Below are positions 19,858 to 25,462 of a DNA stretch of 26,829 nucleotides, in pieces (position 1 is the stretch's first letter; each line of letters opens with the position of its first letter). A model generated the notes under the pieces. The model was given only the letters and a program-made list of their open reading frames with translations, was not told the DNA's origin and did no database searches. The translations under genes and the position numbers were made by a program. Origin of the DNA: Promethearchaeota archaeon (GTDB lineage Archaea; Asgardarchaeota; Lokiarchaeia; Sigyniarchaeales; SOKP01); contig JAFGOA010000178.1 of the NCBI GenBank assembly GCA_016926735.1, positions 1 through 26,829 of the forward strand. Reading direction: 5' to 3'.

Positions 19858-21123
19858 TTATAGATATTCATTTTTTATTTGAGATAAAACAACAGAAGTT
19901 ATTATTATTATTCCCAGTAAAAAATAAATTGCATCGAAGTTCCATGTTAGAATTAAAGCAAACAACGGATAGAATAACGCATGTAGAATACTTCCAAACA
20001 TATTTATTGTACTTAAGACTGTAGCTCTATTGTCTGTTTCTATTTGAGAATTTATCCCTTTAATAAATAACATATTTCTAGAAAGCCCAAGTCCTGAAAT
20101 GAGGATAATTAATAGTAAAACTCCTGGAAGCAATCTCATAAAACCTAATACTATCAATAAAGTACCTATCGTAAAGGTATAGCTTTTCGTAAAGGCACTT
20201 TTTTTTTTTAGTTTCATATCTAAATATGATAGTAATTTTGTAAATATTACCTGTGAAATTGTCATTATTAAAGCGATAATTCCAAAATAGCCAATAGGAA
20301 CATGAAACCGAGTTAAATGAGGTTGATACATCCAAATCATAAAAAATACAAGCGACTCTATTAGTATCAATTCAAAACCAAGGATTTTCAATTTTTTATT
20401 TTTCTTAAGTTCGATTAATCCAGATTTAACGATTTTATAATAATTTTCTTTTTCCTCTTTTCTTAACTCACCATTTGGTTCTTTAATTATTATTGCTATC
20501 AGAGTAGCAAAAATTAATGGAATCATAGTTAAACGCATTGTCATTTGAAGAGAAATAAATTCTGCAACAATAGATCCAATGGGTGCTGATACACCTACAC
20601 CAATTAATCTAAAAGATTGAATATTACCCATTTTCTTTGAAATTTCATCCTTTTTGCCTATTTTTCTTAAAGTATCATATAAAAGTGCCTGATCTGTACC
20701 TGATATCGAAGCCATTGAAAATGCAAAAAATGTTTCTCCAATGAGAAAAACAATTATGCTAGGATATGAGGAATAAATTATCGCTGCACAAGCTCCTGAC
20801 AAACCTCCAATTACTAATGAGAATTTTCGCGAAGTATGATCTGCAATTGCTCCACAAGGAATCTCAAAAACCAATACCATTATCATGAAATAACTTTGGA
20901 TGCACATAGCCTCGAAAAAACTAATTTTACCCCATTCTGTAAAGAAAGGAACTAGTACTCCGGTTATCATGAAGAAATTAGCAAATAATTGATATAAATT
21001 TAATTTCCATATATTAGATTTCCATTCCTTTTGTTCCATCTGTGCAGTAACTTCTTGACTTTTTTGTGGGTTACCTATAAGATTTATTGCTTTATCTTTA
21101 TTTTTATTCTTATTCTTATCCAT
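19858..21123 (-). CDS. MFS transporter
   Basis: About 12 hydrophobic segments; FEIPCGAIADHTSRK (MFS motif A region), SGTDQALLYD, RATVLS. Confidence 0.9.
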   Translation of the reverse strand: MDKNKNKNKDKAINLIGNPQKSQEVTAQMEQKEWKSNIWKLNLYQLFANFFMITGVLVPFFTEWGKISFFEAMCIQSYFMIMVLVFEIPCGAIADHTSRKFSLVIGGLSGACAAIIYSSYPSIIVFLIGETFFAFSMASISGTDQALLYDTLRKIGKKDEISKKMGNIQSFRLIGVGVSAPIGSIVAEFISLQMTMRLTMIPLIFATLIAIIIKEPNGELRKEEKENYYKIVKSGLIELKKNKKLKILGFELILIESLVFFMIWMYQPHLTRFHVPIGYFGIIALIMTISQVIFTKLLSYLDMKLKKKSAFTKSYTFTIGTLLIVLGFMRLLPGVLLLIILISGLGLSRNMLFIKGINSQIETDNRATVLSTINMFGSILHALFYPLFALILTWNFDAIYFLLGIIIITSVVLSQIKNEYL

Positions 21124-21746
21124 AATTTTCTATCTCTACATTTAATTTTGATATTTATATTCTCTAATTACAATAGCAAATGTTTATAGATTGAGCATTT
21201 TCATAGGTAATCATCTTTAAAAAAAAATATCATTGAATTATAATTTATAAAAAAGCTAAATCAGAATAGTAATAAAGTGAAAACCTTGAGCTATTATTAG
21301 ATGCTAATCTAATTTAAATAATAATAAACTCTTTTAAAAAAAATACATGTGTAAAAATGGGACTATCTATAATACAACAATCAGAAGTTTTTCTTGATAA
21401 TCCTATTGTACTTAAATTCATAAATATCAAATTTAATTTTATATTTTTTTAAATATAATATTATTTTTAAATCTATGTAGAATTTAATGCTATTAAGGGG
21501 AAAGAAATGGGATAAAAAGATCTTTTATATAAATTAAATCTCCTCTTAGCAAAAAAAAAATCAATACTAAAATTGAAACGAATAAAATAGAGGTTACTAT
21601 CTGTTTTCTAAAAAAATGAATAATAATAATGATTAAAATTAATAAACAATATTAATTGTTAAAAGTAATTAATTTTGAATATTTGAAATAAATAAAAAAA
21701 TAAATCTCATGTTTCATGGAGGTTCAATAATACTAGGGAGTTTAAA

Positions 21747-23699
21747 ATGTCTGAAAAACAGACCAATGAATTAAAGATTGCGGTTTTTGTGTGTCGTTGA
21801 GGGATTAACATAGCAGGTATATTAGATATTCCAAGAATTGTTTCAGAAATCGATAATTTACCAAATGTGTGGGCTTATGAGTATTTATCAATGTGTACTG
21901 AAGGTGGTTCAGCATATATAAAAGAACAACATGAGGAAAAACATTTCGATCGTATTGTTATAGCAGCATGTACACCTAAAACTCACCAACCAGTATTTCA
22001 TGCAATATTACATGAATTAGGTCTTCCTCCTAGATATTTAGAATTTGTAAATATTAGAGAACATTGTAGTTTTGTACATCAACAACAGAAAGAACAAGCC
22101 ACTGAAAAATCTATTGATTTAATTAAAGCAGGAATTGCAAGATCTCGTTTATTAGAGAATATAGCAACAAAAACTGTTCCTGTAAATCCTGTTGTATTAG
22201 TAATTGGAGGTGGTATTGCGGGTCTTTCAGCAGCTATAGATTTAGCTAATGCTGGTATTAAAGTTCATTTAGTCGAAAAAAATTCTACTATTGGAGGGCG
22301 TATGTCGCAGCTAGATAGAACATTTCCTACAGATGATTGTTCAATTTGAATATTGGGCCCAAAAATGCTCGAAGCTAATCGTCATAAAAACATTAATATT
22401 CTTAGTTATAGTGAAGTTGTCGATGTTGATGGCTATATTGGAAATTTTAAAGTAAAGGTAAATCGTAAAGCTCGATTTGTTGATGAAAACAAGTGTACTG
22501 GATGTGGTTCATGTACAGATGTATGTCCTATTTACGTTCCAAATTATTTTGATGAAAATCTTTCTGCAAGAAAAGTTATTGACAAAGCATTCGCACAAGC
22601 AGTTCCAGCAATACAAGATATTGTAAGAGAGTCTTGTGTAGAGTGTTTTGCTTGTGTTGATACGTGTGAGAATGATGCTATTGATTTTAGTCAACAAGAT
22701 CAAATAATTGAAATAGATGTGGGAACAATAATTATTGCTACTGGGTGGGACCTTTATAAAGGTGATGATTATGGATATGGGATATATGAGAATGTGATTA
22801 ATCAAATTGAACTTGAACGAATTATCGCTCCTAATGGTCCAACATATGGTCATTTGAAGAGACCATCTGATAGAAAGCGACCTACTAAAATATTGTTTAT
22901 AAATTGTGTTGGTTCAAGAGATGTCAAGAAAAATGCTTATTGCAGTGTTGTATGCTGTAATTTATCATTAAAAAATTCGAAACTTATTAAATCAGAATAT
23001 CCAGATTCGGAAATTATATGTACTTATATTGATATGAGATGTGCTGGAAAGGATTATGAAGAATATTATAGGAGATCTAGAGATGCTGGAATAATTTTTA
23101 TTAAAGGATTAGTTGGAAGTATTCAAGAAGATTCTTTAACTAAAAATTTGATTGTTAATTTTGAACCAGTAGGAACGGATACAATCCTTAATATGGAATT
23201 TCATATGGTCGTTTTATCTTCGGCCTCTTTACCATCTCAAGGTACAATTGAAATTGCTAAAGTACTCAAGATGGAAAGAAGTCCTGATGGATTCTTAAAA
23301 GAATTCCATGCTAGACTTGATCCTATTAGTACTAAAGTACCCGGTATATACATATGTGGTTCAGCTCAAGGCCAAAAAGAAATAGATAAGGCTGTAAGTC
23401 AAGCAAAAGGAGCAGCATCTTCAGCTTCTATTCCTATGAATAAAGGAGAATATACTATGGAATTAATTCGAGCTACACCTACTGATGAGCGTTGTGCAAA
23501 ATGTTATAAATGCATTGAAACATGTCCTTATTCAGCAATTTCTGTTAATCAAAAAGGAAATTTAGTTGTTGATATAATAAAATGTCGAGGTTGCGGTACT
23601 TGTACAGCAAGCTGTCCTTCAAAGGCTATAGAATTAACATACTATAGAGATGATCAATATATGGCATATATTGATGAATTACTTCCAATTAATGATTAA
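21747..23699 (+). CDS. hdrA: Heterodisulfide reductase subunit A (flavin-bifurcating), selenoprotein with 2 Sec (650 aa)
   Basis: ATG 21747 follows AGGGAG. Reads IAVFVCR-TGA(21798-21800)-GINIAG (family VFVCHCGxNI) and RTFPTDDCSI-TGA(22347-22349)-ILGPKM (family FPTxDCxxCILxPKM). One frame joins ORFs 21867..22349 and 22353..23699. Also VIGGGIAG, CVGSRD, YCSVVCC and four ferredoxin motifs. Confidence 0.93.
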
Positions 23700-23715
23700 A
23701 GGAGAAAAAAAAAAA

Positions 23716-24147
23716 ATGACTGATAATAACGAAATAAAGATCATTGCTTTCTTATGTTGGAAATGAGGTTATGGTGCTGGAGATATGGCGGGAACAATTC
23801 GTGCACAATATCCTCCATCTCTGCGAGTAATATTAGTTCCTTGTACAGGTAGAGTTGATTCTGATCTTGTTATGAGGACTTTTGGTAGAGGTGCTGATGG
23901 CGTCTTAGTTATTGGATGATATCCACATGAATGTGACTATGAAACGGGTAATTACTCTGCATTTCGAGAAATTGAATATATTAAAGAAATTCTAAGAGCT
24001 GCTGGTATTGATGAAAAAAGAATAAAGATGGAGTTCTGTAGTGCTGCTGAAGGTCAGAAATTTCAAAGGGTAGTAATAGAATTTGATAAAGAAATCAGAG
24101 AGCTAGGCCCAAATCCAATAAAAATTGATACACAAATAAAAAAATAA
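23716..24147 (+). CDS. mvhD: MvhD/VhuD-type [2Fe-2S] hydrogenase delta subunit, selenoprotein with 2 Sec (143 aa); absent from the ORF track
   Basis: MTDNNEIKIIAFLCWK-U(23764-23766)-GYGAGDMAG...VPCTGRVD...GADGVLVIG-U(23917-23919)-YPHECDYETGN...FCSAAEG...LGPNP. Both TGAs sit at conserved Cys positions (CxxC.Y and GCxxxxCxY). GGAG SD at 23701. Confidence 0.93.
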
Positions 24148-24152
24148 ATGTG

Positions 24153-24198
24153 TTCTCTAATGAAATAAGATTAAAAAATTTAGAATCTTATTGAAGAA
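24153..24198 (+). promoter_or_regulatory. SECIS element, eukaryote-like (AUGA/GA core, A-rich apical loop), in the 3' UTR of hdrA-mvhD
   Basis: TTCT(24153-56)..ATGA(24160-63)-AATAAGATT(24164-72)-loop AAAAAATTTAG-AATCTTATT(24184-92)-GA(24193-94)-AGAA(24195-98). This gives a perfect 9-bp upper stem on tandem GA pairs and a short lower stem. Confidence 0.8.
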
Positions 24199-24229
24199 AT
24201 GGTAGCACCATTACAATCACATTAAAAAT

Positions 24230-24258
24230 AAATATTCATAGATTATTTATGAATATTT
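24230..24258. repeat. Perfect 11-bp inverted repeat (hairpin) downstream of the SECIS
   Basis: AAATATTCATA(24230-40)-GATTATT-TATGAATATTT(24248-58). Confidence 0.6.
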
Positions 24259-24310
24259 TAAGACGAATTAATGAATTTTAAAAAATACTATATTAAATTA
24301 TAAAAAAAAT

Positions 24311-25462
24311 TTGAGTTGTAAGGTTGTGGAATTAAAAGCAGAATATCTAATTAAAGAAAAAGATTTTCCTAAATTACTCAATACTTTATTAAAAGAAAAA
24401 TTTGTTGATAAGATCATTGGTGCTAAAACAAAAGTTGATAAAAAATCAGGGGCAGTGGATAGATTTACTATTTCTCCAGAATTATGGGATAACCCTAAAC
24501 AATCAGAAAATTTGCCATTAACCAATCTTATCGCTTATGGTTATGCAAGAACAGACTCCGCTGGAAAATTTTTGCATAAATCGGTTGATGGAGCTAAAAA
24601 AGAGAAAATAGGTCTTATAGCTAGACCATGTGACACTCGAGCATTAATTGAATTAGCTAAAATTAAACAAGTTAATTTGGATAATCTTTTTATTATAGCG
24701 CTTGAAGATCGTGGAATGGTTTTAAATATATCGAAAGAAATTAAAAAAGATAAAAATATCGATCCATCAAAAATCATAAAAGAAAAGATAGAAGATAATA
24801 AAATAGTCTTTTTATTCAAAGATGGAAAGACTAAAGAAATTAAAATTAATGTTGCAGATAATTGTACAAGATGTATCAGAAAAACTCCAGTTATTGCAGA
24901 TATTACAATTAGTGATGTAGGATTATCTATTGAATCGGAAGATCTTATTCTAAAAATTTATTCTGAAAATGGAAGTAAATTGATAGAAAAGTCAGATTTG
25001 AAATTTAATAAACTAGATAATAAAATAAAAGTAATTCATGAGGAGAAACTAAAGGAAATTTTAAAACAATCAAAAGAAAAGAGATCCAAGGACTTAAAAG
25101 AATGGCAAGAATTATCTCAAAAAGAAAAACTCGACAGATTAAACAAATGTACGATGTGTGGAATGTGTATAAATAGTTGTCCGGTATGTTTTTGTATTGA
25201 TTGCATACTACAAAAGAAGAGAAAGGCAAAAAACATAGATAAAATAACTTATCAGCTCACCCGTATAGCTCATGATGCTGATCGGTGTGTTGAGTGTGGA
25301 AATTGTGATAATAACTGCCCAATGCATTTACCTTTATCTTTATACTTCCAATCTCTAAACGATGCTTTTAAAGAAAAGTTCAAATATTCATCAGGAGAAT
25401 CTGTTGATGATATTCCATTTAGGAGCGCAAATGCAATCAAGGAAATGGAACTAGAAAGATAG
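24311..25462 (+). CDS. FdhB/FrhB-family (F420-dependent dehydrogenase beta-like) Fe-S protein with C-terminal 2x[4Fe-4S]
   Basis: KIGLIARPCDTRALIELAKIKQVNLDNL, NCTRC...ADITI, CTMCGMCINSCPVCFCIDC and RIAHDADRCVECGNCDNNCP. Start uncertain (TTG 24311 or GTG 24326). Confidence 0.82.
   Translation: MSCKVVELKAEYLIKEKDFPKLLNTLLKEKFVDKIIGAKTKVDKKSGAVDRFTISPELWDNPKQSENLPLTNLIAYGYARTDSAGKFLHKSVDGAKKEKIGLIARPCDTRALIELAKIKQVNLDNLFIIALEDRGMVLNISKEIKKDKNIDPSKIIKEKIEDNKIVFLFKDGKTKEIKINVADNCTRCIRKTPVIADITISDVGLSIESEDLILKIYSENGSKLIEKSDLKFNKLDNKIKVIHEEKLKEILKQSKEKRSKDLKEWQELSQKEKLDRLNKCTMCGMCINSCPVCFCIDCILQKKRKAKNIDKITYQLTRIAHDADRCVECGNCDNNCPMHLPLSLYFQSLNDAFKEKFKYSSGESVDDIPFRSANAIKEMELER

Follow-up and report, generated by a model that had tools for sequence, protein, structure and literature searches.

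One eukaryote-like SECIS element downstream of an hdrA-vhuD gene pair with four in-frame UGA codons in a Promethearchaeota genome

The stretch of DNA analysed here (the window) comprises positions 1-26,829 of contig JAFGOA010000178.1, forward strand, from the assembly GCA_016926735.1 of a Promethearchaeota archaeon, and contains two adjacent genes, hdrA and vhuD (or mvhD), which are interrupted by four in-frame TGA codons and followed by a single element resembling a selenocysteine insertion sequence (SECIS). The genome is 3.88 Mb in length with a G+C content of 26.2% and a reported completeness of 99.3%; coordinates are those of the window unless another contig of this genome (designated C followed by a number) is named. 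With TGA translated as selenocysteine (Sec, U), both genes are open to a TAA stop codon, and the coding part of the locus has the following features.

21747-23699, + strand: hdrA, coding for a 650-aa HdrA homolog when TGA is read as U; contains two Sec codons and ends in TAA
21798-21800, + strand: UGA, Sec18 of HdrA, 2362 nt 5' of the SECIS AUGA; Cys in paralogs and in HdrA chains of the PDB
22347-22349, + strand: UGA, Sec201 of HdrA, at the canonical HdrA Sec position (~200)
23700-23715, + strand: spacer between hdrA and vhuD, 16 nt, containing AGGAG as a Shine-Dalgarno-like motif for vhuD
23716-24147, + strand: vhuD/mvhD (FlpD family), 143 aa when TGA is read as U; contains two Sec codons and ends in TAA
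23764-23766, + strand: UGA, Sec17 of VhuD, aligned to Cys in paralogs and in solved chains
23917-23919, + strand: UGA, Sec68 of VhuD, aligned to Cys in paralogs and in solved chains

The HdrA homolog has FAD/NAD-binding and 4Fe-4S domains in Pfam, and the VhuD homolog an FlpD domain (PF02662, E 6e-45); the best NCBIfam families are HdrA2/HdrA and VhuD, both matched below their strict cut-offs. The closest solved relative of HdrA is a methanogen HdrA chain (9sfi_A, E 3.2e-200) and the closest of VhuD are MvhD/VhuD chains (E 1.3e-37). All four U positions are occupied by Cys in the all-Cys paralogs that the same genome encodes on contigs C207 and C228. In the solved chains, U18 of HdrA lies opposite a Cys of 9sfi_A, and U17 and U68 of VhuD are opposite Cys in 8rvu_F. 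U201 of HdrA lies opposite a non-standard residue, X, in 9sfi_A, which we take to be Sec.

A first-pass annotation of this DNA had placed in-frame TGAs at 21798, 22347, 23764 and 23917, all at conserved Cys positions, with a gap of 16 nt between hdrA and mvhD that leaves no space for a SECIS, a single AUGA/GA hairpin just past the mvhD stop, and a distance of ~2.36 kb from the first UGA to that element; the coordinates are all correct, and the AUGA begins 13 nt after the vhuD TAA. It had further claimed that gene calling fragments hdrA and loses mvhD, and under table 11 the region does split into open reading frames (ORFs) of 160 aa (21867-22349), 448 aa (22353-23699) and 44 aa (23785-23919). 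Standard gene callers mis-annotate such loci in this manner, with hdrA cut in two and vhuD lost.

The element 3' of vhuD consists of the SECIS hairpin and two further helices, P1 and P3, arranged as a three-way junction.

24147-24225, + strand: whole SECIS-bearing element, the match to a covariance model built from relatives only (R1)
24147-24152, + strand: 5' strand of the P1 closing helix, pairing with 24218-24223
24156-24163, + strand: 5' side of the kink-turn, comprising the C-stem UCU (pairing with AGA at 24195-24197), a 3-nt bulge AAU, and GA, as read from the sequence
24160-24163, + strand: AUGA core, beginning 13 nt past the vhuD TAA
24164-24192, + strand: SECIS hairpin with a perfect 9-bp stem (24164-24172 with 24184-24192)
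24173-24183, + strand: apical loop of 11 nt, AAAAAAUUUAG, A-rich
24193-24197, + strand: GA of the core (24193-24194) followed by AGA, the C-stem partner
24198-24212, + strand: P3 hairpin, 3' of the core, AAUGGU-AGC-ACCAUU
24218-24223, + strand: 3' strand of the P1 closing helix

The core has the predicted structure of a textbook kink-turn, in which the C-stem UCU/AGA is followed by the AAU bulge, tandem G·A/A·G pairs and the 9-bp stem. The CU/AG pairs of the C-stem are conserved across relatives, and the first pair of the 9-bp stem is non-standard in 32 of 80 of them. The loop AAAAAAUUUAG agrees with the description of the SECIS elements of Lokiarchaeota (lokiSECIS), in which the first five bases are mostly A and the last G usually follows an A, and the element has all of the lokiSECIS features given in section 11 of the text of Mariotti et al. 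2016 (PMC4989117).

Only one such element is present in the window. R1 was built from the elements of 24 relatives, excluding those of this genome, four divergent elements and one related locus (L056), and was run with filters off over the full length of the window. It reports a single strong match, at 24147-24225 (79.6 bits, E 4.6e-20), the next match being one of 14.3 bits at 2082-2150. Between 21124 and 24146, a range that takes in the hdrA leader, both coding regions and the spacer, this model found no second SECIS (at most 9.5 bits, E > 2), in agreement with the single element claimed at first. The Rfam SECIS families have no match in the window at the gathering score, nor in 21100-24400 at E<=10; the sole Rfam match, to Corona_FSE (16.3 bits), was dismissed as chance.

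The position and structure of the element are conserved among relatives, which were examined in two sets. The first is composed of 61 genomes of the same class, with a vhuD match in 60, from which the 30 best loci were inspected in detail. In these 30, hdrA is always directly upstream of vhuD and the strict AUGA/9-bp/GA pattern is located just 3' of vhuD in 27; two others carry variant elements (one with a UUGA core and one with two mismatches), for a total of 29 of 30, and none was found in L056. The second, an independent collection of 80 vhuD loci, comes from entries mostly titled Promethearchaeota or Promethearchaeia, with some titled uncultured archaeon or other phyla. All 80 have exactly one R1 match, on the vhuD strand and 0-80 nt past the vhuD match; the core is AUGA in 79 and UUGA in one, and GA follows the stem in 79 of 80. 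In the covariance-model-fitted alignment of these 80 relatives (A4), 92.8% of cells are paired, versus at most 48.7% with slid partners, and 22 of the 23 pairs have double changes, all nine pairs of the SECIS stem among them. A plain MAFFT alignment (A2) gives 88.7% of cells paired and double changes in 13 of 23 pairs; an earlier MAFFT alignment (A1) was discarded since four divergent elements were misaligned. In the elements of loci L036 and L080 the core reads UUGA instead of AUGA, and the stem, P1 and P3 are all intact. A loose genome scan for ATGA-9bp-loop-9bp-GA returned 97 matches, compared with 49-58 in shuffled sequences, and was set aside as too unspecific.

The two genes are also closely associated, and their stop codons differ in use. 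The spacer between them is 10-25 nt long in 109 of 109 loci. The first-pass annotation had noted that the recoded gene ends at a TAA of its own, and this holds more generally: the hdrA stop is TAA in 78 and TAG in 31 of the 109 loci and TGA in none, whereas vhuD ends with TGA in eight of the 109. TGA is an ordinary stop codon in this genome, where it ends 14% of 2213 long open frames. The spacer at 23700-23715 has no T-run and is too short for a hairpin. Co-transcription of hdrA and vhuD is probable, given the short spacer of 16 nt, the lack of a T-run within it and the presence of a separate Shine-Dalgarno motif for vhuD.

The genome encodes a complete Sec pathway, in which the PSTK-like protein, the SelB-like factor and the tRNA-Sec are candidates. 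SepSecS is encoded at C7:723-1883 (364.5 bits), a PSTK-like protein on C91 (139 bits), a SelB/EFSec-like GTPase on C47 (231.7 bits), and a selenophosphate synthetase (SPS) with an in-frame TGA of its own on C151. A candidate tRNA-Sec was spotted by eye at C7:183-343 (+ strand), 380 nt upstream of SepSecS. Its anticodon is UCA, the acceptor stem has 9 bp and the T stem 4 bp, the variable arm is long, the discriminator base is G, and CCA is encoded. The candidate is split by two insertions, one of 31 nt in the T loop and one of ~33-38 nt in the D arm; a T-loop insertion in the tRNA-Sec of Loki is described in the text of Mariotti et al. 2016 (PMC4989117). The candidate is not recovered by standard tools, with no match to Rfam RF01852 in the genome at E<=0.001 and no tRNA-Sec among the 35 tRNAs called by ARAGORN; in-silico deletion of both insertions leads to a tRNA-SeC(tca) call by ARAGORN for 96 of 1175 variants. 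According to the text of Huang et al. 2024 (PMC11227280), Asgard genomes have yielded no SBP2. An extra L7Ae-domain paralog was considered as a stand-in for SBP2 and rejected, the genome having only two PF01248 genes.

We consider it highly probable that hdrA and vhuD form a selenoprotein pair served by one eukaryote-like lokiSECIS, with all four UGAs read as Sec across cistrons. This reading draws on the anatomy of the locus, on an element that is both unique in the window and conserved among relatives, on the match of the four codons to Cys positions and on the Sec machinery described above. A single mRNA would carry both genes together with the element directly 3' of vhuD, and this element would fold as a kink-turn hairpin held in a three-way junction by the closing helix and the second small hairpin. 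The SECIS would serve the mRNA as a whole and not any one reading frame, such that cistron boundaries would be irrelevant. Together with a putative binder (for which L7Ae or the SelB/EFSec-like factor itself are guesses), it would bring Sec-tRNASec to any ribosome positioned at a UGA, and all four UGAs would be decoded as Sec at distances of up to 2.36 kb and across the hdrA stop, presumably by looping. Action of the SECIS throughout the mRNA would explain the obligatory UAA or UAG stop of hdrA, since a UGA at that position would itself be exposed to recoding, and the invariant non-UGA stop would be a clean evolutionary signature of cross-cistron action.

Several points weigh against this interpretation. 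We infer both the bicistronic transcript and the Sec residues in the two proteins from sequence; the locus is absent from the three metatranscriptome runs considered (0 of 30 bins covered). Neither the eukaryotic nor the bacterial SECIS models of Rfam match the element, and the folding energy of its hairpin is unremarkable (z = -1.17), with 23 of 200 shuffled sequences folding as well; the hairpin is judged to be more than chance because of the comparative evidence, namely the R1 score and the double changes in pairs, and not because of its energy. The pair counts of A4 come from an alignment fitted to the model, and the loci compared are kin, with genomes shared between the two sets, so that the counts are not of independent events and overstate independence. 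Among the candidate machinery, the PSTK-like match is below the NCBIfam cut-off, the SelB-like match has 231.7 bits against an NCBIfam cut-off of 242, and the unspliced tRNA-Sec candidate reaches no more than 26.9 bits with the Rfam model. Finally, if translation closely trails transcription, as it can in archaea, the first ribosome to arrive at codon 18 would do so before the SECIS, 2.4 kb downstream, has been synthesized, which the proposed mechanism leaves unexplained.

The element might serve vhuD only, with the hdrA UGAs recoded by a separate unrecognised signal within hdrA or its leader, either a local hairpin of the bacterial kind or a SECIS of the methanogen type. R1 detects only elements resembling its training set, and signals of other types would thus escape it; indeed, second-tier elements are missed under default filters, and the genome-wide run did not recover the divergent SECIS on contig C50 (150 of 7751 candidates scored). 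However, the 60 nt following the two hdrA UGAs show no unusual structure and fold no better than average (ranks 590 and 475 of 753 in-frame segments), and Rfam at E<=10 offers nothing relevant in 21100-24400. The RNAz analysis reported in the text of Mariotti et al. 2016 (PMC4989117) yielded no conserved structure around these genes besides the lokiSECIS. The absence of a TGA stop from 109 of 109 hdrA genes is as predicted if hdrA is exposed to the downstream SECIS, and we regard a separate hdrA signal as improbable.

About equally improbable is that the element is an intercistronic structure within a longer hdrA-vhuD-frhB-like mRNA and acts in processing, stability or attenuation, besides or instead of Sec insertion. 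An frhB-like gene on the same strand follows in 28 of the 30 loci, no T-run of five or more separates it from the SECIS, a 13-bp AT-rich hairpin is found at 24230-24258, and the conserved P1 and P3 helices are superfluous in the classical SECIS model. Against this, the same three-way architecture occurs after vhuU (C142), SPS (C151) and an ORF with a Cys-Sec-Sec motif (C109), each with other downstream neighbours; the junction is found 3' of unrelated Sec genes and so goes with such genes rather than with this operon.

Reading of the UGAs without Sec (by near-cognate read-through, or as Cys or Trp), or their being true stops in a decaying hdrA and vhuD, is very improbable: some public gene calls do render the homologous TGAs as W, a gene-caller artefact, but TGA is an ordinary stop in this genome, the in-frame TGAs are found only at conserved Cys positions, both frames are open and conserved past them in more than 100 loci, the Sec pathway is complete, and the canonical HdrA site is opposite the non-standard X of 9sfi_A.

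A lokiSECIS serving both genes, the arrangement that we favour, is already in print. The first-pass annotation had stated that the class is not new and had offered action across a cistron boundary as an inference; the shared lokiSECIS on HdrA-VhuD, its ~2-kb reach and the inference of a polycistronic mRNA appear in the text of Mariotti et al. 2016 (PMC4989117) and again in that of Huang et al. 2024 (PMC11227280). The text of the former describes tandem pairs of HdrA and VhuD in Loki in which the spacer is very short and HdrA has multiple Sec, a single lokiSECIS located only 3' of the second gene with a reach of ~2 kb, and an HdrA stop that is always UAA or UAG; a polycistronic mRNA is inferred there and cross-cistron action is stated (PMC4989117). 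The text of the latter extends the shared SECIS to more than 400 Asgard genomes (PMC11227280), and the text of a 2026 review repeats the shared-SECIS account (PMC13188914). We found no test of an Asgard or a cross-cistron SECIS in the text of Peiter et al. 2022 (PMC9622424), nor an experimental test of an Asgard element in the texts of the other three papers. The locus is thus a correct rediscovery and a clean further example of a published arrangement, and since that arrangement is already in print its value lies in confirmation and as experimental material. It is a textbook-quality instance of the Asgard 'missing link' SECIS, in which a prokaryotic operon of two genes has a eukaryote-like 3' element.

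In comparison with the published lokiSECIS pairs nothing essential differs. The gene order, short spacer, multi-Sec HdrA, two-Sec VhuD and single element after vhuD are the same, as are the AUGA, 9-bp stem, 11-nt loop with As first and AG last, GA, UAA or UAG stop of hdrA and ~2-kb reach. Compared by text only, the published element is a hairpin with the core (to which Huang et al. add a lower stem and an internal loop), and here P1 and P3 are also present.

The first-pass annotation had called the element eukaryote-type, which stands as far as the AUGA...GA kink-turn core is concerned but not as membership of the Rfam family RF00031, to which the element has no match. It resembles the SBP2-bound eukaryotic type I SECIS (RF00031) in its 3' position, its kink-turn core and the unpaired As of its loop, and presumably in acting over kilobases on several UGAs; it differs in having a shorter upper stem and an extra 3'-side hairpin between the core and the lower helix, and in its prokaryotic, presumably polycistronic mRNA. 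The element would work like a eukaryotic SECIS without being one by the RF00031 model. The VhuD SECIS of Methanococcales and Methanopyrus, as given in the text of Mariotti et al. 2016 (PMC4989117), is similar in its location 3' of vhuD, in one element serving two vhuD UGAs and in its AUGA and GAC/AAC motifs. It has a GAA_A internal loop and a GC-rich 3-bp upper stem where the element described here has an uninterrupted AU-rich 9-bp stem, and unlike it the Loki type also serves the upstream gene, according to the same text (PMC4989117). In vertebrate selenoprotein P several UGAs are likewise recoded at a distance by 3' elements, although there one ORF is served by two SECIS (as cited in the text of PMC4989117) and here two ORFs would share one element.

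The window element is one of five SECIS elements in this genome, all of which are predicted kink-turn arms of a three-way junction with P1 and P3. The same layout is seen after vhuU, SPS, a second vhuD and the Cys-Sec-Sec ORF.

24147-24225 of the window, + strand: after vhuD
C50:~74153-74236: after the second vhuD
C142, ~8130, minus strand: after vhuU
C109, ~12889, minus strand: after the Cys-Sec-Sec ORF
C151, after 12622: after SPS

With a simple parser, a P1 of at least 5 bp together with a P3 of at least 4 bp is found in 44 of 47 hdrA-vhuD elements belonging to two sequence classes, as against 874 of 4700 shuffled flanks. The P1 and P3 sequences are wholly different between the two classes, and the P3 loop contains GC in 79 of 80 relatives. 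The texts of Mariotti et al. 2016 and Huang et al. 2024, as distinct from their figures and supplements, speak of a lower stem with an internal loop but of no such hairpin, and our literature search found no paper joining 'SECIS' with 'three-way junction' in an Asgard context. The description of the junction, and of an element larger than the published hairpin, may therefore be new. A more general proposal, which we advance tentatively and consider rather doubtful, is that the Asgard SECIS requires a three-way junction, of which it forms the kink-turn arm, as in all five elements of this genome and in ~100 related loci, that it is intercistronic in the case of hdrA-vhuD, and that P3 or the junction could dock an archaeal SECIS-binding factor enabling kilobase cross-cistron recoding. 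The conserved junction offers concrete mutants (in P1, P3 and the kink-turn) for a first functional test of an Asgard SECIS.

Downstream of the element the next gene codes for an FrhB/FdhB-like protein.

24311-25462, + strand: FrhB/FdhB-like gene (C-terminal domain and 4Fe-4S), without TGA codons, possibly of the same operon

Since this gene follows on the same strand and no T-run of five or more lies between it and the SECIS in the window, the element may be intercistronic rather than in a 3' untranslated region, where the first-pass annotation had put it; its position directly 3' of vhuD stands. The hdrA-vhuD-frhB-like genes are likely a conserved module and possibly one operon. A scan of sigma-70 sites gave 20 promoter-like sites against 20.7 expected, and no intrinsic terminators, and was uninformative; its models do not cover archaeal promoters. 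The 13-bp AT-rich hairpin (24230-24258, + strand) is situated between the junction and the frhB-like gene and, being followed by only four Us, is a doubtful terminator.

Upstream of hdrA, the spacer separating it from a divergent MFS (major facilitator superfamily) transporter gene (21124-21746) is unusually long at 623 nt and extremely AT-rich, and neither Rfam nor R1 has a match within it. Within vhuD, the 60 nt after the first UGA (23767-23826, + strand) fold unusually well, at -15.1 kcal/mol and rank 8 of the 753 in-frame segments; this may be a local structure that stimulates recoding, or merely a G+C-richer stretch.

The genome contains further versions of these genes. A second hdrA-vhuD pair is located at C50:71724-74200 (+ strand) and has the same layout, with one Sec in HdrA and two in VhuD; the stop codon of its vhuD is the UGA within the AUGA core of its own SECIS. 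C228:29898-32216 (minus strand) codes for an all-Cys fused HdrA-MvhD of 813 aa and C207:2956-4899 (minus strand) for an all-Cys stand-alone HdrA, and Sec and Cys versions coexist in this genome.

The Cys-Sec-Sec ORF on contig C109 (minus strand, ~13328-12912; locus L083:1396-1812, minus strand) is 139 codons long, with TGA-TGA at codons 105-106, and is followed by its own SECIS with the AUGA at C109:12889. The Cys-Sec-Sec motif, a conserved tail of ~35 residues and a lokiSECIS of its own are kept in 14 of 14 loci of relatives. Public gene calls either stop at the TGAs or give W, and those that are named are called 'hypothetical protein'. The protein has no sequence matches in Pfam, NCBIfam or the PDB, and the selenoprotein families of Asgard archaea given by name in the texts of Huang et al. 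2024 (PMC11227280) and the 2026 review (PMC13188914) do not include it. Its AlphaFold model, with a predicted local distance difference test score (pLDDT) of 81, is weakly similar to beta-grasp sulfur carriers, the best fold match being to CysO (Z 4.6), followed by SAMP1 and MoaD (both Z 3.6); Foldseek matches are also weak, with a best E of 0.48 (SAMP1). The ORF may represent a new, arsenic-linked selenoprotein family of archaea and, if confirmed, would be one more such family for archaea. It belongs to an arsenic-resistance (ars) operon, where it is positioned between genes for an ACR3-type carrier and an ArsC of the low-molecular-weight protein tyrosine phosphatase (LMW-PTP) type, adjoining arsR, and within 1.5 kb of the ORF in the 14 loci ACR3 is found in eight (E<=1e-100), ArsC in four and ArsR in seven (two partial). 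We propose that the protein could have an As(III)-binding or a selenium-handling role.

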